In this document: positions 1 through 54,635 of the stretch, one piece after another | Position numbering within the stretch: position 1 is the first letter of the stretch | How the letters are laid out: each line of letters begins with the position of its first letter | Assembly: GCA_964187785.1 (NCBI GenBank) | Contig: OZ076409.1 | Location: 70,930,001 to 70,994,000, forward strand | Source: Amphiscolops sp. MND2022 | Lineage: Eukaryota | Reading direction: 5' to 3' | Length of the DNA stretch: 64,000 nt | Translations under genes and position numbers: made by a program | The notes under the pieces: generated by a model | Told to the model about the DNA's origin: nothing | The model's input: the letters and a program-made list of their open reading frames with translations, nothing else | Databases searched by the model: none

Positions 1-730
1 ATCACTACTACAAGGTTTCATACCCATGATATGGTGCCTTCAGGGGGGCAAACAGATTACCGCTATCTATCACCGTTACGGACTTGGCCCCCCAGCCTAA
101 CCGCTATGTGACCGGAAATTGCACTTTTTGAGCCCAAAGGGTCGATCCTAGCCGGGCAACGTTAGGTAACATATTGTGGTACTCATTGAGACGAGTTGGG
201 GGATATAGTTTCAGTCACCCCCCGTTACCCCTTGAGACCGGAAATGACCGTTATGTGAGTAGAATTGCAATTTTTATACCTTTTGAAGGGCATTTAGGTG
301 CGGAAGGAATGGTAATAGGTGCTTGGACACTATATGATGTAATGGAGGTCGTGAGGAGAGCATTCGGAAGTAACCGTTACGTTGACCCCAAAGTCCCCCT
401 GGTACCGTTAACAACCGGAAATGGCCAAATTTTGTGTTTATAGGGTACAAATGTTTGGTATTTTATGGATAAAAGTACCTGGAAGGTGTTTTAAAGGCCT
501 CCAGAAATGAACATAGTCATGAAACTTTGTGGGGGGTAACGGTATATAGCACCGGAAGTCCAAACCGTTAGTTACAGAATAGGTTTTTTGGTTTCAAAAT
601 GTCTTTAGGCGTAGTTTTGTGGGTTGAATCGTCATAATATCAACTAATACGGACTTTTTTCGGAAATAAAATTTTTTCACATTAGTTTCAGGGACCTCCA
701 ATGTTTCAGTCAACATAACCGTTACATTTT

Positions 731-774
731 GATAGCCTTTCAAGTTGGCCTGGTGTCAACTTGGAAGGGCTATC
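731..774. repeat. 44-bp imperfect palindrome of family L (one per L unit, ~420 bp before the junction)
   Basis: GATAGCCTTTCAAGTTGGC-CTGGT-GTCAACTTGGAAGGGCTATC. Confidence 0.9.
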
Positions 775-1073
775 CTTCTAAAATCGTTAATCAAGAGTGT
801 TTTTGGGGAGGTATATGTTGCATTAGTACCAATTAGAGCTTCATCAACAGTTTGCCAACGGCAAAAACGATGTCGTGATAATTCCGTTATAAGAATATTA
901 ATTAACAAATTGTTTACAAAGTTGATTTTTTCCATTCGAAAAGTGTCCTAATGCCACCAAATTGAATAAAATAATAAATGGTATTGACTTAAACTAAATA
1001 ACATTGAAAAAGAAGATCAACATTTTTATTAGGTCTCATCATGGAAGCTGAAACCTCACGTTTTAACTTAATT

Positions 1074-1195
1074 AACGTCAACGCCACATACTTTACATCA
1101 ACGCCCACCGTCTGTGGGCATGCCGAGGCATGCCCTTCGACGACGTATACCAATTACATATATATCTACACCCTAACCGCGGTAGCCGCTAGGTG
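1074..1195 (+). other. Conserved terminal module and junction (representative; one per unit end, 35 copies)
   Basis: AACGTCAACGCC-N-CATCAACGCCC-CGTC-NNN-GGGCATGCCGAGGCATGCCC-TTCGACGACGTAT-variable tail-GCTAG|GTG; the only long block near-identical across L, S and X. Confidence 0.93.
1116..1135. promoter_or_regulatory. 20-bp palindrome matching a zero-spacer p53-family response element (representative of 35)
   Basis: GGGCATGCCG|AGGCATGCCC versus RRRCWWGYYY x2 matches 19/20. The match is seen; function as a p53 site is untested. Confidence 0.4.
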
Positions 1196-4100
1196 CCGGG
1201 ATTTTCTATTCGACAAGTTTGCGCGCCTTGGGGAGGGTCCCTTTGCGCGCTTTAAGATCCAGGTGTTTCCAACTCCTAAACGGGCATGTGATTTCGACGA
1301 TCTCCTAAACTAGCCATACGATTTGGCTGAAATTTGGCACACGTACCCCCCTCGGCACGGTGAAGATGATTTCCTACTGACGTTTTTCCCGCTAAACATT
1401 TTTTGTTGACCAAAATAACGGTTTTTGGGGTAAAATTTTCAACTTTTTTTAAATTTCATCTTATATCTCGCCACGAGTACACGCTAGCGCTTCCAAACCT
1501 TGCTGACGAAACCTTGCAAACTGTCTCAGGAATGCTGTGTGAAATTTTCAGCTCAATCGGACCTAAACTCGGGGAGATATAGCGTTTTTCCGGAGCGGGG
1601 GGGTTTCATTTTTCTAACGGTCCAGCTTATCTTTGCCATTTTTTCGAAAATGCACTCGCCTAAAGGCCTCCCCTGGCCGGTTTTATTCCCAGCAAAACCA
1701 TTTGGCCCTAAATACGGAGTTTCAGCGTTCCAGCATTCCCGGGCGAAAAGATGTGGGACTTAGAAAAGTTCAAAAATTTTCAAAAAAAAATTTTTCCGTT
1801 ATTTGGGCCCTCAAAGTGGGGGAAAAGTCCCCCCAACCAGTAAAGCAAGTGAATGCATGTGGAAAGCCCTTGTTTAGACGAGAAAAATGCCGTTTAGAAC
1901 GTCTTTTTATCTTAACTTGACATTGACTTTTGTCGTTTTGAAGGTGACCGTTAGATACGGAAAATTGATGTTTTGAGTATTTATCCCATCTGAAAGCCAT
2001 TGAGATACAACATGTTTTGCTCAAAACGTGTTTCATTGCAGTTTCGCTGTCCATTATCACCCTTTGGTGTCTTTTCACGTATTTTTCGTTTCTATAATAA
2101 CAATTTTTTTGTGTATTTATTCATTTTTTTCTCATCAAATAACTTGAAACAGTTGAGTACATTCCATCTCCCTTCCCGGGGGAGATGAGAATGTACTCGC
2201 TAAAGGTCAGGAACTACGGTCTATATCTTCCACAACACAAAAGGGATTGCAAATGGTTTCAGTTTGTCGCAGAAAACTTCTTTTTGCCCTCTGTGACTCG
2301 ACAAAATGAACGTTTCTTACTTACTTTGAAACTCAGCATACCACAACTCATCTCTAACGTCAGCGCCCCCCATACTTGCATCAACGCCCACCGTCCGTGG
2401 GCATGCCGAGGCATGCCCTTCGACGACGTATACCAAGATATACCTGGAGCGCGGTAGCCGCTAGGTGCCGGTGTTTTTTTACACAATGGGGGAAGTTGCG
2501 CGGTTGGGGAGGGTCCCTGACGCGCTCCCGGGATTTCGGATTTTTTAACCTTTACGTACCCATCAAAAATTTTGGGATCTCGAAAACTAGCCGTACGATT
2601 TGGCTGAAATTTGGCACACGTACCCCCCTCGGCACGGTGAAGATGATTCCCTACTGACGTTTTTCCCGCTAAACATTTTTTGTTGACCAAAATAACGGTT
2701 TTTGGGGTAAAATTTTCAACTTTTTTTAAATTTCATCTTTTATCTCGCCACGGGTACACGCTAGCGCTTCCAAACCTTGCTGACGAAACCTTGCAAACTG
2801 TCTCAGGAATGCTGTGTGAAATTTTCAGCTCAATCGGACTTGAACTCGAGGAGATATAGCGTTTTTCCGGAGCGGGGGGGTTTCATTTTTCTAACGGTCC
2901 AGCTTATCTTTGCCATTTTTTCGAAAATGCACTCGCCTAAAGGCCTCCCCTGGCCGGTTTTACTCCCAGCAAAACCATTTGGCCCTAAATACGGAGTTTC
3001 AGCGTTCCAGCATTCCCGGGCGAAAAGTTGTGGGACTTAGAAAATTTCAAAAATTTTCAAAAAATTTTTTTTTCGTTATTTGGGCCCCCAAAGTGGGGGA
3101 AAAGACCCCCCAACCAGTAAATCAAGTGAATGCATGTGGAAAGGCCATGTTTATAGGAGAAAAATGCCGTTTAGAACGTCTTTTTATCTTGGCTCAACGT
3201 TGACTTATGACGTTTTGAAGGTGATGTTTGGAGGTGTAAAGCAAGTGAATAGTAAACGTTATGAGTATTTATCTGATCTGAAAGCCATTGAGATGCAATA
3301 TGATTGCTCAAAACGTAATTCATTGCAGTTTGGCAATCAATCAACACCCTTTGTTGTCGTTTGACATACTTTTTTGTTGTTAAAATAAAAAATTTTGTGT
3401 ATTTATTCATTTTTTTCTCATCAAATAACTTGGAACAGTTGAGTACATTCCATCCCCCCCTTCCGGGGGAGATGAGAATGTACTCGCAAAAAGCACCGAA
3501 CTACGGCCCTTACCTTCCCGAGCTACGCAGTATAAGGATTACATATTGGTTCCGACATTTTCATAGAGTTATATCTTGGTAATCTGTCTGGATATGCCGA
3601 AAAATCAGCACGTGCCTTTTAATACCAAGTTGCTCACAACGACAATTATTTTATATCAACGCCCCCATATTTATCAACGCCCCCCGTCCGTGGGCATGCC
3701 GAGGCATGCCCTTCGACGACCCGCACCAAAATATGCGTTAGCGCGGTAGCCGCTAGGTGCCGGTGTCTTTTTACACAATGGGGGAAGTTGCGCGGTTGGG
3801 GAGGGTCCCTGACGCGCTTCCGTGAGATCAGGTTTTTCAACTAGTGAAATCGACAAAGAAAATTGAGATCTCGTAAACTAGCCATACGATTTGGCTGAAA
3901 TTTGGCACACGTACCCCCCTCGGCACGGTGAAGATGATTCCCTACTGACGTTTTGCTCGCTAAACATTTTTTGTTGACCAAAATAACGGTTTTTGGGGTA
4001 AAATTTTCAACTTTTTTTAAATTTCATCTTATTTCTGGACAGGGGTTTACGCTAGCGCTTCAAAACCTTGCTGATGAAACCTTGCAAACTGTCTCAGGAA

Positions 4101-5030
4101 TGCTGTGTGAAATTTTCAGCTCAATCGGACTTGAACTCAGGGAGATATAGCGTTTTTCCGGAGCGGGGGGGTTTCATTTTTCTAACGGTCCAGCTTATCT
4201 TTGCCATTTTTTCGAAAATGTACTCGCCTAAAGGCCTCCCCTGGCCGGTTTTATTCCCAGCAAAACCATTTGGCCCTAAATACGGAGTTTCAGCGTTCCA
4301 GCATTCCCGGGCGAAAAGTTGTGGGACTTAGAATTTTTCAAAAGTTTTCAAAATTTTTTTTTCCGTTATTTGGGCCCCCAAAGTGGGGGAAAGCACCCCC
4401 CAACCAGTAAAGCGAGTGAATGCATGTGGAAAGCCCTTGTTTAGACAAGAAAAATGGCGTTTAGAATGTCTTTTTATCTTAACTTGACATTGACTTTTGT
4501 CGTTTTGAAGGTGACCGTTAGATACAGAAAATTGATATTTTGAGTATTTATCCCATCTGAAAGCCATTGAGATACAACATGTTTTGCTCAAAACGTGTTT
4601 CATTGCAGTTCCGCTGTCCATTGACACCCTTTGATGTCTTTTGACGTAATTTTCTTTTCTATAATAACAATTTTTTTGGGTATTTATTCATTTTTTTCTC
4701 ATCAAATAACTTGAAACAGTTGAGTACATTCCATCTCCCTTCCCGGGGGAGATGAGAATGTACTCGCTAAAGGTCAGGAACTACGGTCTATATCTTCCAC
4801 AACACAAAAGCAATTGAAAATTGTTTCAGTTTGTCGCAGAAAACTTTTCTTTTTGCACTCAGTGACTCGGCAAAGTGAACGATTTTGACCCATATTGAAT
4901 CTTACTTTACCACAACTCATCTCTAACGTCAACGCCCCCCACACACATCAACGCCCCCCGTCCGTGGGCATGCCGAGGCATGCCCTTCGACGACGTATAG
5001 CAAAATATATTCGAACGCGGTAGCCGCTAG
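1193..5030 (+). mobile_element. Three family S cassettes (1193-2464, 2465-3756, 3757-5030; 1272-1292 bp)
   Basis: Heads start GTGCCGG; shared body; GAGTACATTC...GAATGTACTC palindrome; shared terminal module. Confidence 0.6.
2155..2198. repeat. ~44-bp imperfect palindrome of families S and X (one per unit)
   Basis: GAGTACATTCCATCTCCC-loop-GGGAGATGAGAATGTACTC; X version at 38265-38310. Confidence 0.9.
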
Positions 5031-8000
5031 GTGCGGGGGGGAAACCCCAACAAAATTTTTGGAGGATTCGGGTAGGGTCCTGAATCCGAGTTCAGTGCTG
5101 CCAGCTTTCGTTAAGAAAATTTGGATAGGATTCGGGATCTCGTGATCTAACCATAGGATTTTAAAGTTGGAGCGGCCCCCACCAGATTTTCCAAAAATTA
5201 GCGCCCCCCACCGGGTTCCATACCCCGGAAAATTTTTTTCTGGCCACACGGGCGACCGTTAGGGGGTCATTTTAGGGGTAAAATTCATATAGGGCCACAT
5301 AACTTTTTTTCTGTTGATTTAAAACTTTGGGACCCTGCTAAAAGTTTCTTGACCGTGTTGCAAGGGCTCCGGAGGTCCAAACCAAATTTTTCTAGCTTGA
5401 AGCTATCTCCAAGTACCCCCCCGCCCAAAACGTTATTTTTCCGGAAACGCAGGTTTTTGACCCGGAAGGAGTCGTCTGAGCGCGGGGTCGTTAGGTGATG
5501 TTTTGGGGACGGCCTTGAGACGAAGTGGGGGACATGTAGTTTGCCAACCCCAGTTTACCCCCCGGACGGGAAATGACCGTTATATGAGCGGGAAAATTGC
5601 CCCCCTCCACGTTTTACCGCTATTTCCGGTGTGAAGGAGTGGGAGTAGCGCGTCGGGTGCCATATATCAAAAGTAGGTTTAAACAAGGATCTATCGGAAA
5701 CATGTGGTTTGGGACCCCCTGGACCAACCCGTTAGCGGGAAATGGGACTTCCGCCTCCTTTTTTTACGGTTAAAAACGGAAAATGGGCATTGAGGGGTAA
5801 ATATCTCGTGAACGCGTGGAGCTACGGTGTCCTTCACTACTACAAGGTTTCATGCCCATCATATGGTGCCTTCAGGGGGGCAAACAGATTTCCGCTATCT
5901 ATCACCGTTACGGACTTGGCCCCCCAGCCTAACCGTTAAGTGACCGGAAATGTCATATTTTGAGCCCAAAGGGTCGGTCTCAGCCAGGGAACGTTAGGTA
6001 ACTTATTGTAGTACTCATTGAGACGAGTTGGGGGACATAGTTTCAGTCACCCCCCGTTACCCCTTAGGACCGGAAATGACCGTTATGTGAGTAAAATTGC
6101 CATTTTTGTCCTATTTGAAGGCCATTTAGATGAGGAAGGAGTGGTAATAGGTGCTTGGACACTATATGAGGTAAGGGAGGACGTGAGGCGAGCATTCGGA
6201 TATAACCGTTATTTTGACCCTAAAGTCCCCCTGGTACCGTAAACGACCGGAAATGGTCAAATTTTGTGTCTATTGGGTACAAATGTTTAGTATTTTGTAG
6301 ATAAAAGTATCTATTAGGTGTTTCGACGGTCTGCAATAGTGAACATAGTCATGAAACCTTGTGGGGGGTAACGGGGTATATAGCACCGGAAGTCCAAACC
6401 GTTGGACACAGGATAGGTTTTTGGTTTTAAATTGTCTTTCGGCGTACTTTTGTCGACTATTATGGACTATTTTTTGAAAATTAAAGTTTTTCTATATAGT
6501 TTCAGAGACTCCGAAACCTCAACCAACATAACCGTTACCTTATGATAGCCTTTCAAGTTGGCCTGCTGGCAACTTGGAAGGGCTATCCTTCAAAAATCGT
6601 TAATCAAGAGTGTTTTTGGGTAGGTATATATTCAATTAGTACCAATTAGAGCTTCATCAACAGTGTATCAACGACAAAAACTAAGCCGTCATGATTCCGT
6701 TGTTAGAATAGTAGTGAGCTAATTGTTGACAAAAATATTTTTTTTATACAAAATGTGTCCTAAATGCCAGGAAACCTATTTACCTAACAAATGGTATTGA
6801 TTGGAATGTATGTAACCTATTTATAAAAGTTCAAATTGATTATTACGTTTCATTATGGAAGCTGAAACGTCATATTTCAGTTTAATTAACGTCAACGCCA
6901 CATACTTTACATCAACGCCCACCGTCTGTGGGCATGCCGAGGCATGCCCTTCGACGACGTATACCAAATACATACCCAACGACGCCCGTACATCCCGGGC
7001 TAGGTGCGGGGGGGAAACCCCAACAAAATTTTTGGAGGATTCGGGTAGGGTCCTGAATCCGAGTTCAGTGCTGCCAGCTTTCGTTAAGAAAATTTGGATA
7101 GGATTCGGGATCTCGTGATCTAACCATAGGATTTTAAAGTTGGAGCGGCCCCCACCAGATTTTCCAAAGTTATTCGCCCCCCACCGGGTTCCAGCGTGAT
7201 TGAAATATTTTGACGGGGTACACGGGCGACCGTTAGGGGTCATTTTGGGGGTAAAATTTATATCCGGTCGCATAACTTTTTTCCTGTTGGATTAAAACTT
7301 TGGGACCCTGCTAAAAGTTTCTTGACCGTGTTGCGGGGGCTCCGGAGGTCCAAACCAAATTTTTCTATCTTGAAGCTATCTCCAAGTACCCCCCCGCCCA
7401 AACCGTTATTTTTCCGGAAACGCAGGTTTTTGACCCGGAAGGAGTCGTCTGAGCGCGGGGTCGTTAGGTGATGTATTGGGGACGGCCTTGAGACGAAGCG
7501 GGGGATATATAGTTTGCCGACCCCAGTTTACCCCCCGGACGGGAAATGACCGTTATATGAGCGGGAAAAATGCCCCCCTCCACGTTTTACCGCTATTTCC
7601 GGTGTGAAGGAGTGAGAGTAGCGCTTCGGGTGCCATATATCAAAAATAAGTTTAGCCAAGGACCTATCGGAAACATGTAGTTTGGGACCCCCTGGACCAA
7701 CCCGTTAGCGGGAAATGGGGCTTCCGCCTCCTTTTTTTACTGCTAAAACCGTAAAATGGGCATTGAGGGGTAAATATCTCCTGAACGCGTGGAGCAATCG
7801 TGTCCATCACTACTACAAGGTTTCATACCCATGATATGGTGCCTTCAGGGGGGCAAACAGATTTCCGCTATCTATCACCGTTACGGACTTGGCCCCCCAG
7901 CCCAACCGCTATGTGACAGGAAATGTCACTTTTTGAGCCCAAAGGGTCGGTCCCAGCCTGGGAACGTTAGGTAACTTATTGTAGTACTCAATGAGACGAG

Positions 8001-10946
8001 TTGGGGGATATAGTTTCAGTCAACCCCCGTTACCCCTTAGGACCGGAAATGACCGTTATGTGAGTGAAATTGCAATTTTTATACTCTTTGAAGTGTATTT
8101 AGGTGCGGAAGGAGTGGTAATAGGTGCTTGGACACTATATAATGATAGGGAGGACGTGAGGCGAGCATTCGAAAAAAAACAGTTATGTTGACCCCAAAGT
8201 CCCCCTGGTACCGTAAATGACCGGAAATGGTCAAATTTTGTGTTTAAAGGGTACAAATGTTTGGTGTTTTATGGATAACAGTACCTATTAGGTGTTTCGA
8301 CGGTATGCAGTTGTGAACATAGTCATGAAACCTTGTGGGGGGTAACGGTATATAGCACCGGAAGTCCAAAACGTTGGAGACAGGATAAGTTTTTTGGTTT
8401 TAAAACGTCTTTCGGCCTACTTTTGTCGACTATTATGGTCTATTTTTGAAAAATAGAATTTTTCCATATAGTTTCAGAGACTCCGAAACCTCAACCAACA
8501 TAACCGTTACCTTATGATAGCCTTTCAAGTTGGCCTGGTGTCAACTTGGAAGGGCTATCCTTCAAAAATCATTAATCAAGTGTGTTTTTGAGTATGTTTG
8601 TATTACTTTAGAATCAATTAGAGCTTCAAGAAAAGTTTGCCAACGACAAAAACTATGTCGTGATGATTCCGTTATTAGAATACTAGTTAACAAAGTTTTA
8701 AAAACGTTGATTTTTTACATTTCAAATGTGTCCTAAATGCCAGAAAACCTCTTTACCAAACAAATGGTATTGATTGAATTGTATATAACAGCTAATAAAA
8801 GTTCAAACTGAATATTACGTTTCATTTTGGAAGCTGAAACGTCATTTTATAGTTTCATTAACGTCAACGCCACATACTTTACATCAACGCCCACCGTCCG
8901 TAGGCATGCCGAGGCATGCCTTTCGACGACGTATACCAAATTCCTTTAACACAACACCCCCGAGCGCGGTAGCAGCTAGGTGCGGGGGGGTAACCCCAAC
9001 TTTTTTCTTGGAGGAATCGGGTAGGGTCCTGATTCCGAGTTCAGTGCCGCCAGCTATCGTTAAAAACCTATACCTTTTAAACCCGATCTCGAGAACTAAC
9101 CACGCCCCTTCTTTAATTTTTTGGCCCCCACTCACTTTTTGATAGTAGATCGCCCCCCACTGGGTTCCAAGTTGGGCAAAAATGGAGGTCATGGGTAACG
9201 GGGACCGTTAAGGGGTAACTCAGGGGGTAAAATTTATTTTTTGCGTCATATCTTTTCCCCCCGTGGATTTAGCGCTTCCGGTCAGCAGACAAAACCTCAT
9301 GTACGTGATACGGGGCCTCCGTAGGTCCAAACAAAATTTTTCTATCATGCACCGTTACGGACTTGCCCCCCCGGCCCAACCGTTATTTTGCCGGAAATTG
9401 CACTTTTTGACCGGGAAGGAGTCGTCTGAGCACGGAGTCGTTTGGTAATGTTTTGTAGTGCATCTGGAGACGTGTTGGGGGACATGTAGTTTGCCGGCCC
9501 CAGTTTACCCCCCGGACGGGAAATGACCGTTATGTGAGTTTTAAAATTACCCCCCTTCAATTTTCCCGGTTATTTCCGGTGTGAAGGAGTGGGAGTAGCG
9601 CGTCGGGTGCCATATATCAAAAGTAGGTTTAGACAAGGACCAACCGGAAACATGTGGTTTGGGACCCCCTGACCCAACCCGTTAGCCGTTATAAGGGTGA
9701 TCGCCTCCTTTTTTTACACTCAAAACCGGAAAACGGGTATTGAGGGGTAAATATCTCGTGAACGCGTGGAGCAATCGTGTCCATCACTACTACAAGGTTT
9801 CATACCCATGATATGGTGCCTTCAGGGGGGCAAACAGATTACCGCTATCTATCACCGTTACGGACTTGGCCCCCCAGCCCAACCGCTATGTGACCGGAAA
9901 TGTCACTTTTTGAGCCCAAAGGGTCGGTCCCAGTCTGGGAACGTTAGGTAACTTATTGTAGTACTCATTGAGACGAGTTGGGGGACATAGTTTCAGTCAC
10001 CCCCCGTTACCCCTTAGGACCGGAAATGACCGTTATGTGAGTGAAATTGCAATTTTTATACTTTTTGAAAGGCATTTAGGTGCAGAAGGAGTGGTAATAG
10101 GTGCTTGGACACTATATAATGATAGGGAGGACGTGAGGCGAGCATTCGAAAAAAACCGTTATGTTGACCCCAAAGTCCCCCAGGTACCGTAAATGACCGG
10201 AAATGGTCAAATTTTGTGTTTAAAGGGTACAAATGTTTGGTGTTTTATGGATAACAGTACCTATTAGGTGTTTCGACGGTATGCAGTTGTGAACATAGTC
10301 ATGAAACCTTGTGGGGGGTAACGGTATATAGCACCGGAAGTCCAAAACGGTGGAGACAGGATAAGTTTTTTGGTTTTAAAACGTCTTTCGGCCCACTTTT
10401 GTCGACTATTATGGTCTATTTTTGAAAAATAAAATTTTTCCATATAGTTTCAGAGACTCCGAAACCTCAACCAACATAACCGTTACCTTATGATAGCCTT
10501 TCAAGTTGGCCTGGTGTCAACTTGGAAGGGCTATCCTTCAAAAATCATTAATCAAGTGTGTTTTTGAGTATGTTTGTATTACTTTAGAATCAATTAGAGC
10601 TTCAAGAAAAGTTTGCCAACGACAAAAACTATGTCGTGATGATTCCGTTATTGTTAACAAAGTTTTAAAAACGTTGATTTTTTACATTTCAAATGTGTCC
10701 TAAATGCCAGAAAACCTCTTTACCAAACAAATGGTATTGATTGAATTGTATATAACAGCTAATAAAAGTTCAAACTGAATAATACGTTTCATTTTGGAAG
10801 CTGAAACGTCATTTTATAGTTTCATTAACGTCAACGCCACATACTTTACATCAACGCCCAACGTCCGTAGGCATGCCGAGGCATGCCTTTCGACGACGTA
10901 TACCAAATTCCTTTAACACAACACCCCCGAGCGCGGTAGCAGCTAG
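5031..10946 (+). mobile_element. Three family L cassettes (5031-7003, 7004-8979, 8980-10946)
   Basis: Heads start GTGCGGGGGGG(A/T)AACCCC; ~1.97 kb; GATAGCC...GGCTATC palindrome; shared terminal module. Confidence 0.6.
5064..5087. other. Head hairpin ~30-60 nt downstream of L and S junctions (representative)
   Basis: GGATTCGGG-TAGGGT-CCTGAATCC; S units carry different stems around a similar loop. Confidence 0.85.
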
Positions 10947-12233
10947 GTGGCCGGAAATTTTTTTTTTCAGCAAAATCTTTGCCATTGGGGGAGGGGCCCC
11001 GGATGGCCAGTAGTACGGGATAGCTTCCTACCAAATCCAGATGGAAAAAACGTGATTTCGGAAACTAGCCGTCAGAATTTGCTCAAAATTTGCATACGGC
11101 TTCCTATGACAATCCTAAGAACTAATCCCTACTGGCATTTTGCCCGAAAAACGCAAAAAGTTGGTCAAAATCTTAGTTTTTTGGTCAAAAAATGGCGTTT
11201 TTTCGAAAAAATTTTTTTCAGAGACAATTACTCGTAACTGGTTCACCCAGCGCAAAAACGCCTAGCTGATTTATTGTTGGGCACTTCATGAGGAGTGCGT
11301 ATACAAATTTTCGTCCAGATCGGAAAAAAATTGACTAAGTATTAGCCGGAATTCGGACGCATTTTTTCGCAAATTTTTGAAAACCTAGTCTATCTCTGCC
11401 GTTTTTTGCCCAGATTTTTTTCCAGGTCCTCTCCTAAAGGCCTCCCCTGGCCGGTTTACTTCCCAGAAAAACCATTTGGCCCTAAATACGGAGTTTCAGC
11501 GTTCTAGCATTCCCGGGCGAAAAGATGTGGGACTTAGAAAAAATTCAAAATTTTTCAAAAAATTTTTTTTTCGTTTTCCGGCCCCCCAATGAAGGGGAAC
11601 GACCCCCCAACGAGGATTTTTGGTGAATTCATGTGGAAAGGCCTTGTTTTGTGGAGCAAATTGCCGTTTAGAGCGACTTTTCATCTTAACTTGACGTTGA
11701 CCTCTGTCGTTTTGAATTTGATATTAGTATGTGTTGAGCATGTGAAAAGTTGATGATTTCAGTTGTTCTCTCGTGTTCAAGCCATTGAGATACAAGCGGT
11801 AGTGATCAAAATGTGATTTATCGCAATTTGGTGGTGCTTTTGGTGTATTTTGATTCTTTTAAATAAAAAGTTGGTCTTCATATATTTGGTGTATTGATTC
11901 AAATGAACAAGAAACAGTTGAGTACATTTCATCTCCCCCCTTGTGGGGGAGATGAGGATGTACCCGCTAAATGACACGCACAATGGCCCAATTTTATTTT
12001 TATGCGACGTTTTCTAGGCTTTTGCGCAAGCCCACCAAAATTTAGACTGGTTTCTTTTTCTTTTACTTCAAAATTTTCCGTACTAACCACCTTACGCACC
12101 ACCAGCTCAACGTAACATCTGTAACGTCAACGCCACACACTCTCACTAACGCCCACGGTCCGTGGGCATGCCGAGGCATGCCCTTCGACGACGTATGCCA
12201 GATAGCGCCACCTGGCGCAAACTTGTCCGCTAG
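10947..12233 (+). mobile_element. Divergent family S cassette (subtype S2, 1287 bp)
   Basis: Head GTGGCCGGAAA; S-type central block and palindrome; close sister copy at 59020-60307. Confidence 0.6.
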
Positions 12234-15200
12234 GTGCGGGGGGGAAACCCCATCCCTTATCTTGGAGGATTCGGGTAGGGTCCTGAATCCGAGTTCAGTG
12301 CCGCCAGCTCTCAGTAGAAATCTGGGCATTTTTTTGCGATCTCGTGATCTAACCATAGGATTTTAAAGTTGGAGCGGCCCCCACCAGATTTTCCAAAGTT
12401 ATTCGCCCCCCACCGGGTTCCAGCGTGATTGAAATATTTTGTCGGGGTACACGGGCGACCGTTAGGGGTCATTTTGGGGGTAAAATTTATATCCGGTCGC
12501 ATAACTTTTTTCCTGTTGGTTTAAAACTTTAGGACCCTGCTAAAAGTTTCTTGACCATGTTGCAGGGGCCCCGGAGGTCCAAACCAAATTTTTCTATCTT
12601 GAAGCTATCTCCAAGTACCCCCCCGCCCAAACCGTTATTTTTCCGGAAATGCCGGTTTTTGACCCGGAAGGAGTCGTCTGAGCGCGGGATCGTTAGGTGA
12701 TGTTTTGGGGACGGCCTCGAGACGAAGCGGGGGATATATAGTTTGCCGACCCCAGTTTACCCCCCGCACGGGAAATGACCGTTATATGAGCGGGAAAAAT
12801 GCCCCCCTCCACGTTTTACCGCTATTTCCGGTGTGAAGGAGTGGGAGTAGCGCGTCGGGTGTTATATAACAAAAGTAGGTTTAGACAAGGACCTATCGGA
12901 AACATGTAGTTTGGGACCCCCTGGACCAACCCGTTAGCGGGAAATGGCGCTTCCGCTTCCTTTTTTTACTGCTAAAACCGTAAAATGGGCATTGAGGGGT
13001 AAATATCTCGTGAACGCGTGGAGCAATCGTGTCCATCACTACTACAAGGTTTCATACCCATGATATGGTGCCTTCAGGGGGGCAAACAGATTTCCGCTAT
13101 CTATCACCGTTACCGACTTGGCCCCCCAGCCTAACCGCTATGTGACCGGAAATGTCACTTTTTGAGCCCAAAGGGTCGGTCCCAGCCGGGGAACGTTAGG
13201 TAACTTATTGTAGTACTCAATGAGACGAGTTGGGGGATATAGTTTCAGTCACCCCCCGTTACCCCTTGGGACCGGAAATGACCGTTATGTGGGTAAATTT
13301 GCAATTTTTATACTTTTTCAAGTGTATTTAGGTGCGGAAGTAGTGGTAATAGGTGCTTGGACACTATATGAGGTAATGGAGGACGTGAGGCGAGCTTTCG
13401 GAAATAACCGTTATATTGACCCTAAAGTCCCCCTGGTACCGTTAACGACCGGAAATGGCCAAATTTTGTGTCTATTGGGTACAAATGTTTGGTATTTTAT
13501 GGATAAAAGTACCTGGAAGGTGTTTTAAAGGCCTCCAGAAGTGAACATAGTCATGAAACCTTGTGGGGGGTAACGGTATATAGCACCGGAAGTCCAAACC
13601 GTTGGTCACAGAATAGGTTTTTTGGTTTCAAAATGTCTTTAGGCATAGTTTTGTGGGTTGAATCGTCATAATATCAATTAATACGGACTTTTTTCGGAAA
13701 TAAAATTTTTTCACATTAGTTTCAGGGACCTCCAATGCTTCAGTCAACATAACCGTTACATTTTGATAGCCTTTCAAGTTGACCTGGTGTCAACTTGGAA
13801 GGGCTATCCTTCTAAAATCGTTAATCAAGAGTGTTTTTGGGTAGGTATATGTTGCATTAGTACCAATTAGAGCTTCATCAACAGTTTGCCAACGGCAAAA
13901 ACGATGTCGTGATAATTCCGTTATAAGAATATTAATTAACAAATTGTTTCCAAAGTTGATTTTTTCCATTCGAAATGTGTCCTAATGCCACCAAATTGAA
14001 TAAAATAATAAATGGTATTGACTAAAACTAAATAACAATGAAAAAGAAGATCAACATTTTTATTAGGTCTCATTATGGAAGCTGAAACCTCACGTTTTAG
14101 TTTAATTAACGTCAACGCCACATACTTTACATCAACGCCCACCGTCTGTGGGCATGCCGAGGCATGCCCTTCGACGACGTATACCAAACAACCTCCATAT
14201 CTACACCCACCCGCGGTAGCAGCTAGGTGCGGGGGGGAAACCCCATCCCTTATCTTGGAGGATTCGGGTAGGGTCCTGAATCCGAGTTCAGTGCCGCCAG
14301 CTCTCAGTAGAAATCTGGGAAATTTTTTGCGATCTCGTGATCTAACCATAGGATTTTAAAGTTGGAGCGGCCCCCACCAGATTTTCCAAAGTTATTCGCC
14401 CCCCACCGGGTTCCAGCGTGATTGAAATATTTTGTCGGGGTACACGGGCGACCGTTAGGGGTCATTTTAGGGGTAAAATTTATATCCGGTCGCATAACTT
14501 TTTTCCTGTTGGTTTAAAACTTTGGGACCCTGCTAAAAGTTTCTTGACCGTGTTGCGGTGGCTCCGGAGGTCCAAACCAAATTTTTCTATCTTGAAGCTA
14601 TCTCCAAGTACCCCCCCGCCCAAACCGTTATTTTTCCGGAAACGCCGGTTTTTGACCCGGAAGGAGTCGTCTGAGCGCGGGGTCGTTAGGTGATGTTTTG
14701 GGGACGGCCTCGAGACGAAGCGGGGGATATATAGTTTGCCGACCCCAGTTTACCCCCCGCACGGGAAATGACCGTTATATGAGCGGGAAAAATGCCCCCC
14801 TCCACGTTTTACCGCTATTTCCGGTGTGAAGGAGTGGGAGTAGCGCGTCGGGTGTTATATAACAAAAGTAGGTTTAGACAAGGACCTATCGGAAACATGT
14901 AGTTTGGGACCCCCTGGACCAACCCGTTAGCGGGAAATGGGGCTTCCGCCTCCTTTTTTTACTGCTAAAACCGTAAAATGGGCATTGAGGGGTAAATATC
15001 TCGTGAACGCGTGGAGCAATCGTGTCCATCACTACTACAAGGTTTCATACCCATGATATGGTGCCTTCAGGGGGGCAAACAGATTTCCGCTATCTATCAC
15101 CGTTACCGACTTGGCCCCCCAGCCTAACCGCTATGTGACCGGAATTGTCACTTTTTGAGCCCAAAGGGTCGGTCCCAGCCGGGGAACGTTAGGTAACTTA

Positions 15201-18200
15201 TTGTAGTACTCAATGAGACGAGTTGGGGGATATAGTTTCAGTCACCCCCCGTTACCCCTTGGGACCGGAAATGACCGTTATGTGGGTAAAATTGCAATTT
15301 TTATACTTTTAAGTGTATTTAGGTGCGGAAGGAGTGGTAATAGGTGCTTGGACACTATATGAGGTAAGGGAGGACGTGAGGCGAGCATTCGGAAATAACC
15401 GTTATATTGACCCTAAAGTCCCCCTGGTACCGTAAACGACCGGAAATGGTCAAATTTTGTGTCTATTGGGTACAAATGTTTAGTATTTTGTAGATAAAAG
15501 TATCTATTAGGTGTTTCGACGGTCTGCAATAGTGAACATAGTCATGAAACCTTGTGGGGGGTAACGGGGTATATAGCACCGGAAGTCCAAACCGTTGGAC
15601 ACAGGATAGGTTTTTGGTTTGAAAATGTCTTTCGGCGTACTTTTGTCGACTATTATGGACTATTATTAAAAATTAAAGTTTTTCCATATAGTTTCAGAGA
15701 CTCCGAAACCTCAACCAACATAACCGTTACATTTTGATAGCCTTTCAAGTTGGCCTGGTGTCAACTTGGAAGCGCTATCCTTCTGAAATCGTTAATCAAG
15801 AGTGTTTTTGGGTAGGTATATATTGCATTAGTACCAATTAGAGCTTCATCAATAGTGTATCAACGACAAAAACTATGCCGTCATGATTCCGTTATTAGAA
15901 TCATAGTGAGCAAATTGTTGAAAAAAATGGTTTTTTCCATACAAAATGTGTCCTAAATGCCAGGAAACCTATTTACCTAACAAATGGTATTAATTGGAAT
16001 GTATGTAACAGATTTATAAAAGTTCAAATTGAATATTACATTTCATTATGGAAGCTGAAACGTCATATTTTAGTTTAATTAACGTCAACGCCACACACTT
16101 TACATCAACGCACACCGTCTGTGGGCATGCCGAGGCATGCCCTTCGACGACGTATGACAAATCCTCATCAAACGACGCCCGTACATGCCGGGCTAGGTGC
16201 GGGGGGGTAACCCCAACAAAATTTTTGGAGGATTCGGGTAGGGTCCTGAATCCGATTTTAACTCTAATAGCTATCGATAGGAAATCTTGCAAAAATTTCG
16301 GGATCTCGTGATCTAACCATAGGATTTTAAAGTTGGAGCGGCCCCCACCAGATTTTCCGAAAATTAGCGCCCCCCACCGGGTTCCATACCCCGGAAAATT
16401 TTTTTCTGGCCACACGGGCGACCGTTAGGGGGTCATTTTAGGGGTAAAATTCATATTGGGCCACATAACTTTTTTTCTGTTGATTTAAAACTTTGGGACC
16501 CTGCTAAAAGTTTCTTGACCGTGTTGCAAGGGCTCCGGAGGTCCAAACCAAATTTTTCTAGCTTGAAGCTATCTCCAAGTACCCCCCCGCCCAAAACGTT
16601 ATTTTTCCGGAAACGCAGGTTTTTGACCCGGAAGGAGTCGTCTGAGCGCGGGGTCGTTAGGTGATGTATTGGGGACGGCCTTGAGACGAAGCGGGGGACA
16701 TGTAGTTTGCCGACCCCAGTTTACCCCCCGGACGGGAAATGACCGTTATTTGAGCGGGAAAAATGCCCCCTCCACGTTTTACCGCTATTTCCGGTGTGAA
16801 GGAGTGGGAGTAGCGCGTCGGGTGTTATATAACAAAAGTAGGTTTAGACAAGGACCTATCGGAAACATGTAGTTTGGGACCCCCTGGACCAACCCGTTAG
16901 CGGGAAATGGGGCTTCCGCCTCCTTTTTTTACGGTTAAAAACGGAAAATGGGCATTGAGGGGTAAATATCTCGTGAACGCGTGGAGCAATCGTGTCCTTC
17001 ACTACTACAAGGTTTCATGTCCATCATATGGTGCCTTCAGGGGGGCAAACAGATTTCCGCTATCTATCACCGTTACGGACTTGGCCCCCCAGCCTAACCG
17101 CTATGTGACCGGAAATGTCACTTTTTGAGCCCAAAGAGTCGGTCTCAGTCAGGGAACGTTAGGTAACTTATTGTAGTACTCATTGAGACGAGTTGGGGGA
17201 TATAGTTTCAGTCACCCCCCGTTACCCCTTAGGACCGGAAATGACCGTTATGTGGGTAAATTTGCAATTTTTGAACTTTTTGAAGGGCATTTAGATGCGG
17301 AAGGAGAGGTAATAGGTGCTTGGACACTAAATGAAGGAAGGGAGGACGTGAGGCGAGCATTCGGAAATAACCGTTATGTTGACCCTAAAGTCTCCCTGGT
17401 ACCGGAAGTGACCGGAAAGTGTCAAATTTGGTGTTTTTAGGGTACAAATGTTCGGTGTTTTATGGATTAAAGTACAGGTTAGGTGTTTTCACGGTCTGCA
17501 GTAGTGAACATAGTCATGAAAACTTGTGGGGGGTAACGGTATATAGCACCGGAAGTCCAAACCGTTGGAGACAGGATAAGTTTTTTGGTTTTAAAATGTC
17601 TTTCGGCCTACTTTTGTTGACTATTATGGACTATTTTTGGAAAATAAAGTTTTTCCAAATAGTTTCAGAGACTCCGAAACCTCAACCAACATAACCGTTA
17701 CCTTATGATAGCCTTTCAAGTTGGCCTGGTGTCAACTTGGAAGGGCTATCCTTCAAAAATCATTAATCAAGTGTGTTTTTGAGTTTGTTTGTATTACTTT
17801 AGAATCAATTAGAGCTTCAAGAAAAGATTGCCAACGACAAAAACTATGTCGTTATGATTCCGTTATTGGAATAATAGTTAACAAAATATTGATAAAGTTG
17901 ATTTTTTACATTTTAAATGTGTTCTAAATGCCAGAAAACCTCTTTACCAAACAAATGGAATTGATTGAATTGTATATAGAAGCTAATAAAAGTTCAAATT
18001 GAATATTACATTTCATTATGCAAGCTGAAACGTCAAATTATAGTTTATTTAACGTCAACGCCACATACTTTACATCAACGCCCACCGTCCGTAGGCATGC
18101 CGAGGCATGCCTTTCGACGACGTATACCAGATTCCACCCTCACAACACCCCCGAGCGCGGTAGCAGCTAGGTGCGGGGGGGTAACCCCAACTTTTTTCTT

Positions 18201-20164
18201 GGAGGAATCGGGTAGGGTCCTGATTCCGAGCTTAGTGCCGCCAGCTATCGTTAAAAACCCATACCTTTTAAACCCGATCTCGGGAACTAACCACGCCCCT
18301 TCTTTAATTTTTTGGCCCCCACTCACTTTTTGAGAGTAGATCGCCCCCCACTGGGTTCCAAGTTGGGCAAAAATGGAGGTCATGGGTAACGGGGACCGTT
18401 AAGGGGTAACTCAGGGGGTAAAATTTATTTTTTGCGTCATATCTTTTCCCCCCGTGGATTTAGCGCTTCCGGTCAGCAGACAAAACCTCATGTACGTGAT
18501 AAGGGGCCTCCGTAGGTCCAAACAAAATTTTTCTATCATGCACCGTTACGGACTTGCCCCCCCGGCCCAACCGTTATTTTGCCGGAAATTGCCTTTTTTG
18601 ACAGGGAAGGAGTCGTCTGAGCACGGAGTCGTTTGGTAATGTTTTGTAGTGCATCTGGAGACGTGTTGGGGGACATGTAGTTTGCCGACCCCAGTTTACC
18701 CCTCGGACGGGAAATGACCGTTATGTGAGTTTTAAAAATGCCCCCCTTCAATTTTCCCCGCAATTTCCGGTGTGAAGGAGTGGGAGTAGGGTGTCGGGTG
18801 CCATATATCAAAAGTAGGTTTAGACAAGGACCAACCGGAAACATGTGGTTTCGGACCCCCTGACCCAACCCGTTAGCCGCTATTAGGGTGATCGCCTCCT
18901 TTTTTTGCTGTTAAAACCGGAAAACGGGCATTGAGGGGTAAATATCTCGTGAACGCGTGGAGCAATCGTGTCCATCACTACTACAAGGTTTCATACCCAT
19001 GATATGGTGCCTTCAGGGGGGAAAACAGATTACCGCTATCTATCACCGTTACCGACTTGGCCCCCCAGCCTAACCGCTATGTGACCGGAAATTGCACTTT
19101 TTGAGCCCAAAGGGTCGATCCTAGCCGGGCAACGATAGGTAACATATTGTAGTACTCATTGAGACGAGTTGGGGGATCTAGTTTCAGTCACCCCCGTTAC
19201 CCCTTGAGACCGGAAATGACCGTTATGTGAGTAGAATTGCAATTTTTATACCTTTTGAAGGGCATTTAGGTGCGGAAGGAATGGTAATAGGTGCTTGGAC
19301 ACTATATGATGTAATGGAGGTCGTGAGGAGAGCATTCGGAAGTAACCGTTACGTTGACCCCAAAGTCCCCCTGGTACCGTTAACAACCGGAAATGGCCAG
19401 ATTTTGTGTTTGTAGGGTACAAATGTTTGGTATATTCTGGATAAAATTACCTGGAAGGTGTTTTAAAGGCCTCCAGAAGTGAACATAGTCATGAAACTTT
19501 GTGGGGGGTAACGGTATATAGCACCGGAAGTCCAAACCGTTAGTTACAGAATAGGTTTTTTGGTTTCAAAACGTCTTTAGGCGTAGTTTTGTGGGTTGAA
19601 TCGTCATAATATCAACTAATACGGACTTTTTTCGGAAATAAAATTTTTTCACATTAGTTTCAGGGACCTCCAATGTTTCAGTCAACATAACCGTTACATT
19701 TTGATAGCCTTTCAAGTTGGCCTGGTGTCAACTTGGAAGGGCTATCCTTCTAAAATCGTTAATCAAGAGTGTTTTTGGGTAGGTATATGTTGCATTAGTA
19801 CCAATTAGAGCTTCATCAACAGTTTGCCAACGGCAAAAACGATGTCGTGATAATTCCGTTATAAGAATATTAATTAACAAATTGTTTACAAAGTTGATTT
19901 ATTTCATTTAAAATGTGTCCTAATGCCACCAAATTGAATAAAATAATAAATGGTATTGACTAAAACTAAATAACATTGAAAAAGAAGATGAACATTTTTA
20001 ATAGGTCTCATTATGGAAGCTGAAACCTCACGTTTTAACTTAATTAACGTCAACGCCACATACTTTTCATCAACGCCCACCGTCTGTGGGCATGCCGAGG
20101 CATGCCCTTCGACGACGTATACCAAACAACCTCCATATCTACACCCAATTGCGGTAGCGGCTAG
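12234..20164 (+). mobile_element. Four family L cassettes (12234-14226, 14227-16196, 16197-18170, 18171-20164)
   Basis: Same head, body and terminal module as the other L units; 1970-1994 bp. Confidence 0.6.
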
Positions 20165-22726
20165 GTGCCGGTGTTTTTTTACACAATGGGGGAAGTTGCG
20201 CGGTTGGGGAGGGTCCCTGACGCGCTTCCGTGGTATCGGGTCTTTCAACCGATGAAAACGACATAAAAAATTGGGATCTCGTAAACTAGCCATACGATTT
20301 GGCTGAAATTTGGCACACGTACCCCCCTCGGCACGGTGAAGATGATTCCCTACTGACGTTTTTCCCGCTAAACATTTTTTGTTGACCAAAATAACGGTTT
20401 TTGGGGTAAAATTTTCAACTTTCTTTAAATTTCATCTTATATCTCGCCACGGGTACACGCTAGCGCTTCCAAACCTTCCTGACGAAAGTTTGCAAACTGT
20501 CTCAGGAATGCTGTGTGAAATTTTCAGCTCAATCGGACTTAAACTCGAGGAGATATAGCGTTTTTCCGGAGCGGGGGGGTTTCATTTTTCTAACGGTCCA
20601 GCTTATCTTTGCCATTTTTTCGAAAATGTACTCGCCTAAAGGCCTCCCCTGGCCGGTTTTATTCCCAGCAAAACCATTTGGCCCTAAATACGGAGTTTCA
20701 GCGTTCCAGCATTCCCGGGCGAAAAGTTGTGGGACTTAGAAAATTTCAAAAATTTTCAAAAAAATTTTTTTCCGTTATTTGGGCCCCCAAAGTGGGGGAA
20801 AAGACCCCCCAACCAGTAAAGCAAGTGAATGCATGTGCAAAGCCCTTGTTTGGACGAGAAAAATGCCGTTTAGAATGTCTTTTTATCTTAACTTGACATT
20901 GACTTTTGTCGTTTTGAATGTGACCGTTAGATACAGAAAATTGATATTTTGAGTATTTATCCCATCTGAAAGCCATTGAGATACAACATGTTTTGCTCAA
21001 AACGTGTTTCATTGCAGTTCCGCTGTCCATTGACACCCTTTGATGTCTTTTGACGTAATTTTCTTTTCTATAATAACAATTTTTTTGTGTATTTTTTTCA
21101 TTTTTTTCTCATCAAATAACTTGAAACAGTTGAGTACATTCCATCTCCCTTCCCGGGGGAGATGAGAATGTACTCGCTAAAGGTCAGGAACTACGGTCTA
21201 TATCTTCCACAACACAAAAGCAATTGAAAATTGTTTCAGTTTGTCGCAGAAAACTTTTCTTTTTGCACTCAGTGGCTCGGCAATGTGAACGATTTTGACC
21301 CATATTGAATCTTACTTTACCACAACTCATCTCTAACGTCAACGCCCCCCACACACATCAACGCCCCCCGTCCGTGGGCATGCCGAGGCATGCCCTTCGA
21401 CGACGTATAGCAAAATATATTCGAACGCGGTAGCCGCTAGGTGCCGGGATTTCTATTCGATAAAGTATGTGGCGCGTGTGGGTAGGGCCCCTGGCGCGCT
21501 CTTGGGTATGGTGTTCACCAGCTAGGAAACAGGGGTCGATTTTTCGGGATCTCCTAAACTAGCCACACGATTTGGCTGAAATTTGGCACACGTACTCCCC
21601 TCGGCATGGTGAAGATGATTCCCTACTAGCGTTTTGCTCGCAAAATTTTTTTTGTTGTCCAAAATAACGGTTTTTGGGGGAAAATTTTGAACTTTTTTTA
21701 AATTTCATCTTATATCTCGCCACGGGTTTACGCTAGCGCTTCAAAACCCTGCTAAAGAAAGCTTGCAAACTGTCTCAGGAATGCGGTGTGAAGTTTTCAG
21801 CTCAATCGGACTTAAACTCAGGGAGATATAGCGTTTTTCCGGAGCGGGGGGGTTTCATTTTTCTAACGGTCCAGCTTATCTTAGCCATTTTTTCGAAAAT
21901 GTACTCGCCTAAAGACCTCCCCTGGCCGGTTTTATTCCCAGCAAAACCATTTGGCCCTAAATACGGAGTTTCAGCGTTCCAGCATTCCCGGGCGAAAAGT
22001 TGTGAGACTTAGAAAATTTCAAAAATTTTCAAATTTTTTTTTTCCGTTTTCCGCCCTCCCCCCCGAGGGGAAAAGACCCCCCAACCAGTAATTTGAGTGA
22101 ATTCATGTGGAAAGGCCATGTTTAGAGGAGAAAAATCCCGTTTAAATTGTCTTTTTATCTTTATTCAACGTTGACTTATGACGTTTTGAAGGTGATGTTT
22201 GGAGGTGTGAAGCACGTGAAAAGTAAACGTTATGAGTTTTTATCTGATCTGAAAGCCATTGAGATGCAACCTGTTTTGCTCAAAACGTAATTCATATCAG
22301 TTTGGTAGTCAATCAACACCCTTTGTTGTCATTTGACATCTTTTTTTGTTGATATAAGAAAAAATTTCGTGTATTTATTCATTTTTTTCTCATCAAATAA
22401 CTTGAAACAGTTGAGTACATTCCATCCCCCCTCCACGGGGGAGATGAGAATGTACTCGCAAAAAGCCCCGAACTACGACCCTTACCTTCCTGAGCTACGC
22501 AGTATAAAGATTGCATATTGGTTCCGACATTTTGATAGAGTTATATCTTGGTAATCTGTCTGGGTATGCAGAAAAACCAGCACGTGCTTTTTTATACCAA
22601 GTTGCTCACAACGACATTTATTTTATATCAACGCCCCCATATTTATCAACGCCCCCCGTCCGTGGGCATGCCGAGGCATGCCCTTCGACGACGTATACCA
22701 AGATATGTTCGAGCGCGTTAGCCTAG
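20165..22726 (+). mobile_element. Two family S cassettes (20165-21440, 21441-22726)
   Basis: S body. The 3' half of 20165-21440 is near-identical to that of 3757-5030; the 3' part of 21441-22726 resembles 2465-3756. Confidence 0.6.
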
Positions 22727-53700: not shown

Positions 53701-54635
53701 CGGAAATGACCGTTATGTGGGTAAATTTGCAATTTTTATACTTTTTGAAGGGCATTTAGATGCGGAAGGAGTGGTAATAGGTGCTTGGACACTATATGAA
53801 GGAAGGGAGGACGTGAGGCGAGCTTTCGAAAATAACCGTTATGTTGACCCCAAAGTCCCCCTGGTACCGGAAGTGACCCGTAATGGTCAAATTTCGTGTT
53901 TAAAGGTTACAAATGTTTGGTGTTTTATGGATAACAGTGCCTATTAGGTGTTTCGACGGTCTGCAGTCGTGAACATAGTCATGAAACCTTGTGGGGGGTA
54001 ACGGGTTATAGCACCGGAAGTCCAAACCGTTGGCGACAGGATAAGTTTTTTGGTTTTAAAATGTCTTTCGGCCTACTTTTGTCGACTATTATGGACTATT
54101 TTTGGAAAATAAAGTTTTTCCATATAGTTTCAGAGACTCCGAAACCTCAACCAACATAACCGTTACCTTATGATAGCCTTTCAAGTTGGCCTGGTGTCAA
54201 CTTGGAAGGGCTATCCTTCAAAAATCATTAATCCAGTGTGTTTTTGAGTATGCTTGTTTTACTTTAGAATCAATTAGAGCTTCAAGAAAAGATTGCCAAC
54301 GACAAAAACTATGTCGTGATGATTCCGTTATTAGAATAATAGTTACCAAAATGTTGATAAAGTTGATTTTTTACATTTCAAATATGTCCTAAATGCCAGA
54401 AAACCTCTTTACCAAACAAATGGTATTGATTGAATTGTATATAGCAGCTAATAAAAGTTCAAATTGAATACTACGTTTCATTATGCAAGCTGAAATGTCA
54501 TATTATAGTTTCATTAACGTCAACGCCACATACTTTACATCAACGCCCACCGTCTGTGGGCATGCCGAGGCATGCCCTTCGACGACGTATACCAAATTCC
54601 TCCAACACAACACCCCCGAGCGCGTTAGCAGCTAG
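38782..54635 (+). mobile_element. Eight family L cassettes (ends at 40781, 42756, 44751, 46744, 48714, 50689, 52660, 54635)
   Basis: L head, body and terminal module; 1970-2000 bp each. Confidence 0.6.

Follow-up and report, generated by a model that had tools for sequence, protein, structure and literature searches.

A gene-less array of head-to-tail units

The DNA analyzed here (the window) is a stretch of 64,000 nt that is occupied from end to end (1..64000, + strand) by a head-to-tail array of 34 complete units and two further units cut by the window ends, all in one orientation and with no intervening DNA. We delimited the units by cutting at CTAG|GTG after each copy of a 20-bp palindrome. 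The complete units fall into six clusters by size and sequence: nine are 1.27-1.29 kb long (four clusters), 22 are 1.97-2.00 kb, and three are 2.19 kb. The 1.27-kb family S1 comprises U1 (1193..2464, +), U2, U3, U12, and U13; the 2.0-kb family M, exemplified by U4 (5031..7003, +), has 22 complete members that are 79-99.9% identical and are mosaics of one another; the 1.29-kb family S2 comprises U7 (10947..12233, +) and U32 (59020-60307); and the 2.19-kb family L comprises U21 (36590..38781, +), U30, and U31. The remaining two, the 1.28-kb family S3 (U33, 60308..61587, +) and the 1.29-kb family S4 (U34, 61588..62873, +), are single copies. All 34 complete units are full length, and none carries a poly(A) tail or a 5' truncation. 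The size classes are clumped along the array (10 switches vs 18.3 in shuffles, p 0.001), a pattern that ordered growth or local amplification would give.

Each of the 35 joints reads CTAG|GTG (the first at 1189..1195, +), with the palindrome 43-58 nt before the unit end, and these joints account for all 35 CTAGGTG words on the + strand of the window, each of which lies 43-58 nt past a core. The boundary lies within these seven bases, and the exact cut cannot be fixed from the array. Families switch always at CTAG|GTG, and the joints are base-exact even between families that cannot be aligned with each other. Between the core and the joint lies a variable tail (first copy, 1145..1188, +), which goes with the upstream unit and contains small GC hairpins in some copies: tail similarity correlates with that of the upstream units (Mantel r 0.64, p 0.0005) but not with that of the downstream heads (Mantel r 0.02, p 0.36). 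Because the tails follow the upstream unit in this way, and because no exact match between units reaches far to both sides of a joint (40 and 326 nt at best), CTAG|GTG is the true unit boundary. U22 (38782..40781, +) and U24 (42757-44751) are near-identical, with two substitutions and one 5-base gap between them, and their neighbors differ on both sides, which makes the copy exactly one unit long. No other part of otherwise similar units varies as much as these tails of 35-50 nt, and tail types recur across the 2.0- and 2.2-kb families, a hint that sequence has been exchanged within the core. Some joints (e.g., 61580-61593) and the tail of U7 (about 12205-12222) may resemble the CTCF motif.

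The units are discrete, with a GTG start and a CTAG end, and they share little beyond the end signal. No terminal inverted or direct repeats above shuffle level were found in them; in every one of the 34 units, the best inverted match between the first 60 and the last 90 nt has a length of 6-10 nt, and the shuffle means are 7.9-8.6 (60 shuffles each). One layout is common to all families: GTG at the start, then a 5' hairpin, a box about 105-130 nt from the start, and the core near the 3' end. The 5' hairpin of U1 (1221..1250, +) has a family-specific stem paired around a GG(G/T)AGGG loop. A 5' hairpin with this conserved loop is present in 32 of 35 unit starts (e.g., 5064-5087), as well as in a metagenomic relative, L047 (at 916-937), and the three 2.2-kb units carry a different one. 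The loop is kept while the stems read GGATTC/GAATCC, GGAATC/GATTCC, GCGCGC/GCGCGC, GCCAT/ATGGC, or GGCGC/GCGCC; the stem of U34 is exceptional in having only three pairs. The box, GATCTC...ACTAGCC...GATTT (1299..1338, +, in U1), can be recognized in L047 and in every family, about 105-130 nt into the unit. It resembles the interiors of insect Helitron and DINE-1 elements, a likeness that suggests an animal host.

A long hairpin inside the units (2155..2198, +) was found in 13 copies, all in units of 1.3 or 2.2 kb and none in the 2.0-kb family. It lies upstream of the core, by about 250 bp in the 1.3-kb and about 440 bp in the 2.2-kb units, and shows paired changes in L047 (566-606). The 2.0-kb units (e.g., 5031-7003) hold about 11 copies of CCGTTA and about nine of CCGGAA each, which we take to be similar to Myb and ETS words, and this family also contains an internal diverged duplication of about 185 bp. 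In most units, as at 1074-1108, two CAACGCC words about 20-22 bp apart stand directly upstream of the core, in the manner of iterated protein sites. Loose matches to the core words of the hammerhead ribozyme number five and one and do not come one per unit. A REP-like GTRG foot stands before the hairpin, but its last two bases lie inside the stem.

The array is gene-less, and no transposase was found. Among the 17 stop-to-stop frames of at least 120 aa, the nine compared with Pfam gave nothing above cut-off; one match, with an E of 0.046, lay below its cut-off. Rfam returned no match at gathering score over the whole window and, with relaxed settings over 1000-7100 (6.1 kb), nine weak matches, all far below cut-off. 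No tRNA was found.

The core and its variants

The palindrome has 9-bp arms and a 2-nt center (first copy, 1116..1135, no strand assigned). The preliminary description of this DNA had counted 35 copies of the motif, and this count is borne out: the 18-mer GGCATGCCGAGGCATGCC occurs in 35 exact copies, all on the + strand, with 0.00 expected from 100 shuffles of the 64,000-nt window. It is the sole 18-mer present in every unit, and words from the core are the only words of 10 or more letters common to all 34 complete units. In either orientation, the 18-mer is absent from the literature searched, which excludes subscription journals and Repbase. The palindrome sits in a frozen block of 35 nt (first copy, 1110..1144, +), composed of GTCYGT, the 20-bp palindrome, and TTCGACGAC. 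When the 35 window copies are aligned with L047, 32 of the 35 positions of this block are invariant, 14 of which fall outside the 20-mer and hence outside the footprint of a p53 element. The CGTC-NNN flank that had been ascribed to all families is there in 33 of 35 copies, the exceptions being 12164 (GGTC) and 60238 (TGTC). In the nine 1.3-kb units, which are 58-97% identical and have 32% of their columns invariant, the core is the longest invariant run, at 35 nt, and the next is 14; in the 2.0-kb family, the core run is 18 nt, and other invariant runs of 17-22 nt are equally long.

The source of L047 is a metagenome scan with the palindrome, which gave 64 loci. One of these, L047 (1172 nt), is a true homologue; at the other 63, among the matches listed (60 of 178 BLAST rows and all 64 flanks), similarity extends over at most about 24-37 bases around the palindrome. 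Compared with U5, L047 is identical in 51 of 51 core positions, while its body is about 70% identical and aligns at 67-89% in patches. It has a joint of its own, CGAG|GTG, 52 nt past the palindrome, which leads from a 1.3-kb-like into a 2.0-kb-like unit. On the evidence of this one contig, another genome has the constrained core as well as a mixed array, which argues against mere local homogenization or misassembly. Searches with three patterns gave 0, 4, and 0 matches in viral contigs and 0, 5, and 0 in prokaryote genomes, and the four and the five are chance matches. One sequencing run contained a small share of the sequence, and there was no RNA run among those listed; the contigs of that run are scattered pieces in which the joint is bridged with 31 letters on each side in none of eight pieces (of 24), and we do not count them as evidence.

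Across the 36 working cores (35 in the window plus L047), eight of the nine stem pairs are invariant, and positions 1 and 20 of the palindrome vary only jointly. The first palindrome with A..T instead of G..C at these positions lies at 8902..8921 (no strand assigned), and the others start at 10869, 18093, 42679, and 50612. These are exactly the five places named in the preliminary description, and mixed A..C or G..T copies number 0 of 35. The paired change is therefore real, but as an argument from compensation it is weaker than had been claimed. In a tree built from 300 columns upstream of the core for all 22 units of the 2.0-kb family, the five A..T copies form one clade (support 100/100) with two G..C units nested inside, and because of this they probably arose by one change and not by five. 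The A..T state recurs in L047 and also in the 2.2-kb family, in its second cores, which may have the same origin. Template switching or hairpin-templated repair in a palindrome can moreover yield paired changes without selection. We note that an alignment of 10 hand-picked, related core rows is 95.7% paired, with four pairs showing double changes, a count that is not proof given how the rows were chosen. The extended fold of the working cores is not exceptional either (z -0.8 to -2.7 in four folds).

A..T is not the only variant form, as had been thought, since each of the three 2.2-kb units has, about 197 bp before its working core, another copy that has diverged and shows 3-4 mismatches to the p53 consensus. 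In U21 (38511..38530, no strand assigned), as in U31 (at 58749), no joint follows this copy, and a paired change from C:G to T:A keeps the outer pairing and breaks both p53 half-sites; the copy in U30 (56555..56574, no strand assigned) has two T.G wobbles, one mismatch, and four p53 mismatches. These second cores are probably old ends bypassed by read-through or products of a local duplication. Their drift is only suggestive as evidence for a hairpin because compensation in one of two changes would not be unusual and could stem from hairpin-templated repair.

The likeness of the 20-mer to a p53-family site, scored here by two copies of the RRRCWWGYYY consensus and not by a weight matrix, is as close as had been described. 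The palindrome fits the consensus at 19 of 20 positions, and all 35 copies have the same element layout of two decamers with CATG cores, zero spacer, and one mismatch, the G at position 10. The central GA had been called the single mismatch; the G does mismatch, and the A fits R. These 35 one-mismatch matches compare with 0-2 such matches per sequence in 10 simulated 64-kb sequences. Each arm contains the self-complementary octamer GGCATGCC, so that the palindrome has the four quarter-sites found in a p53 element. For a perfect palindrome of random sequence with 9-bp arms, the probability of so good a match is 3.7e-4, or 1.2e-2 if the arms are taken as self-complementary, both values being for a motif picked afterwards. 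As had been pointed out, the A..T form, the sole variant among working cores, keeps the consensus, and it is compatible with the hairpin and the p53 readings alike; positions are frozen both within and beyond the p53 site.

What the palindrome may do

Since eight of nine stem pairs are invariant, the palindrome is not a pure structure signal; the data say that the core sequence is read base by base by something. The reading that we favor, to which we would give a probability of about 0.55, is that the palindrome forms the center of a signal by which the right end is recognized in non-autonomous elements of a rolling-circle, Helitron-like kind, which would insert at resident joints. An autonomous partner outside the window would act in trans through a single-strand transposase (HUH, Helitron-type), which would read the frozen 35-nt block as sequence plus hairpin. 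Copying would stop at CTAG, 43-58 nt past the palindrome, and the new copy would land at the joint of a resident copy, recreating the joint and with it the landing site; insertion at resident joints is what we infer from the arrangement of the units. Joints rebuilt in this manner would let the array grow with mixed families, and recombination between neighboring units would produce the mosaics. The constant place of the core near the unit end in every family, its frozen flanks, the restriction of family switches to CTAG|GTG with tails that follow the upstream unit, and the one-unit-long copies U22 and U24 in different surroundings all favor this reading, as do the intact core and separate joint of L047 and the paired changes in the 5' and internal hairpins. 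An enzyme-read site had been proposed before, and the proposal agrees with this anatomy (a fixed place near the unit end, frozen flanks, paired changes in other hairpins), although the compensation in the palindrome itself supports it less than had been claimed.

Several observations do not sit well with an end signal of this type. Neither a transposase nor an autonomous partner was found in the window (nine of 17 long frames compared with Pfam), the 5' end is GTG and not TC, the distance from palindrome to end is 43-58 nt and variable instead of about 11, and L047 ends in CGAG and not CTRR. Helraiser, as described in PMC4778049, does not hop locally. A pure hairpin should also vary in pairs more than a stem with eight of nine pairs fixed, and the extended fold is unexceptional.

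A second reading, compatible with the end signal, treats the palindrome as a candidate binding site of the p53/p63/p73 type that would be kept either for the element, through activation by DNA damage or in the germ line, or for the benefit of the host. We regard this as rather unlikely. The 19/20 match with zero spacer and CATG cores in all 35 copies, the quarter-sites that a plain hairpin does not need, the low chance of such a fit (for one post hoc motif), and the persistence of the consensus in the sole variant all speak for it. There are also precedents: p53 sites in retroelements are documented (bioRxiv 10.1101/2025.10.01.679811), and sites for host stress factors are known in Helitrons (PMC6927752). 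Other features count against it. Transitions are tolerated at R, W, and Y, yet no lone one is seen in 36 working cores; positions 1 and 20 co-vary, which p53 does not require; the mismatching G is itself frozen, together with 14 bases beyond the 20-mer; and the array has no gene to regulate. Other hairpins of these elements, which have no p53 likeness, show paired changes too. We conclude that the palindrome does strongly resemble a p53 site but that this is probably not what has chiefly preserved it; from the standpoint of the end-signal reading, the match is incidental or a secondary use. The elements described in bioRxiv 10.1101/2025.10.01.679811 are likewise two RRRCWWGYYY decamers matching at 19 of 20 positions, but they lie in LINE, LTR, and SINE copies with binding data, whereas here the candidate site is a frozen end motif of DNA-type units known from its sequence. 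If a p53-family protein binds it, the DNA-damage response would be linked directly to the end signal of a DNA element.

Joining both ideas leads to a bolder proposal, which we think distinctly improbable: an undescribed class of eukaryotic self-targeting elements in which one enzyme would stack gene-less cassettes of many families, integron-like, at a joint that is regenerated each time, and in which the end signal would double as a p53-family site and tie growth or excision of the array to DNA-damage or germ-line signaling. We find the organization of the array more surprising than the resemblance to a p53 site.

It is doubtful that the array is an integron-like stack of cassettes built by a tyrosine recombinase of the Crypton type, in which circles would recombine via the 7-bp CTAGGTG with the palindrome as an accessory site. 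The single orientation, the same 7-bp sequence at each joint, and the mixing of families are what such a stack would show, and Cryptons are described as elements without terminal inverted repeats that end in direct repeats of 4-6 bp and have given rise to non-autonomous derivatives in animals (PMC3212892). Tyrosine recombinases, though, typically need inverted arms of 11-13 bp around a 6-8-bp spacer (PMC3212892), and such arms are lacking here: across the 35 joints they score 6.2 of 12 vs 6.26 at random places. The palindrome is in addition too far from the joint, at a variable distance, and there is no recombinase gene in the window.

We are just as skeptical of the idea that the core acts as a compact promoter, or as a signal for processing, and that the units are tandem genes for structured non-coding RNAs (or RNA-mobilized elements) driven from the end of the upstream neighbor. 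The core does stand shortly before the start of the next unit (about 45-58 nt), and several hairpins with paired changes are present. The lack of any Rfam family at gathering score, with weak subthreshold matches only and no tRNA, counts against it, as does the full length of 34 of 34 units without poly(A) tail or 5' truncation; gene arrays also have no need for tails and heads to be shuffled independently at one base.

The least probable reading, to which we attach very little weight, is that of an ordinary complex satellite whose core is functionless and kept uniform by gene conversion and hairpin-templated repair: the units are strongly mosaic, the 2.0-kb family has other invariant runs of 17-22 nt against 18 for the core, and template switching in the palindrome could account for the paired changes, but the core is intact in L047, from another genome, while the bodies diverge, second cores without a joint have decayed within the same array, and joints between unalignable families are base-exact. 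L047 by itself already largely refutes a satellite, unless the contig is a recent transfer from the same host lineage. Two other readings were rejected outright. In an assembly chimera formed via the shared core, the switch would not fall at the 7-bp joint 43-58 nt away, and L047 has a like joint; a spliced-leader or recursive-splice reading of AG|GT is at odds with the variable tails and with GAG in L047.

Comparison with known mobile elements

Terminal inverted repeats of the MITE/DDE type are absent here, and the units all have one orientation although CTAG is symmetric. Dada elements likewise have no terminal inverted repeats, and two of their families are described in tandem, in the same orientation, with one 6-7-bp sequence between them (PMC3706591). 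In that account, however, Dada elements target snRNA or tRNA genes (GCGAA-type sites) and have short subterminal inverted repeats (PMC3706591), whereas the window, beyond which the outer flanks of the array lie, has no Rfam or tRNA match and the units have no subterminal inverted repeats. Replitrons are described with short terminal direct repeats, as which the 7-bp joint could be read, and a right-end hairpin, and are placed in algae, plants, and protists (PMC10288648). The telomere-targeting Helitrons of Paramecium share with our reading of the units a rolling-circle mode, target specificity with, in their case, an absolute orientation bias, and derivatives without ORFs (PMC13085455); their copies are described there as flanked by telomeric repeats of varying length, whereas the joints here are flush and invariant.

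Helitron1 (HLE1) elements, as characterized in PMC4778049 and PMC11417382, have a 3' CTAG, a subterminal palindrome of about 20 bp, no terminal inverted repeats, and no duplication of the host target, and they are like the units here in size (1.3-2.2 kb), in having conserved right and diverse left ends, and in forming head-to-tail joints. In Helraiser, the CTAG end lies behind a 19-bp palindrome that acts as a termination signal, and head-to-tail circles are formed (PMC4778049); Helitrons are reported to vary less at their right than at their left ends (PMC11417382). With the cut set after CTAG, all 35 joints carry the 3' CTRR of HLE1, with CGAG in L047. The 5' TC of HLE1 is replaced by GTG after CTAG at 35 of 35 joints, and the HLE1 palindrome (16-20 nt, about 11 bp from the 3' end) has its counterpart here at 43-58 nt; at about 11 bp, 2 of 35 tails have a GC hairpin of 5-6 bp. 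HLE1 inserts between A and T without target duplication; the joints here read G|G, and the array has at least 36 units from six clusters with no host DNA between them.

In the position of the palindrome, the units are closer to HINE, DINE-1, and Helitron2 elements, which are described as having hairpins close to either end and, at 38-60 bp from the 3' end, a palindromic element (PMC4067079, PMC5148889, PMC7492417). In the HINEs of mites, this palindromic subterminal element lies 38-60 bp from the 3' end (PMC4067079); here the palindrome is at 43-58 nt, and the hairpin anchor at the 5' end is found in 32 of 35 starts. The hairpins of the Fusarium Helitron2, FoHeli, contain GCC GAA GGC, close to the GCC GA GGC of the core, and in both a GTCY unit stands beside the hairpin (PMC5148889). 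Unlike the elements described in these sources, the units here have no 5' subterminal inverted repeat, T-rich ends, TT target, microsatellite run, or central repeats: the 11-15-bp subterminal inverted repeats of HLE2 are found in none of the 34 units, and in place of T-rich ends and TT insertion the joints read CTAG|GTG.

The units probably work like a non-autonomous Helitron and are not filed as one, because the 5' TC, the hairpin spacing, the subterminal inverted repeats, and the TT ends were all looked for and do not match. Termini of this kind would be missed by detectors that seek a 5'-TC or terminal inverted repeats (criteria as given in PMC11417382). In the literature searched (titles and the starts of abstracts, outside subscription journals and Repbase), we found no descriptions of such head-to-tail arrays of non-autonomous Helitrons. 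In bat and maize, distant Helitron relatives are reported to adjoin each other directly in some places (PMC4067079). An array of this sort bears on how mobile DNA builds heterochromatic arrays, and its mechanism would provide insertion that is site-specific by nature. In the Helitron tandems known so far, it is mostly one element that is repeated, or a few that adjoin, whereas here at least 36 units from six clusters are stacked flush over more than 64 kb. This stack, whose arrangement recurs in a distant genome, speaks for a transposase, of the rolling-circle or another type, with its own ends as the target.
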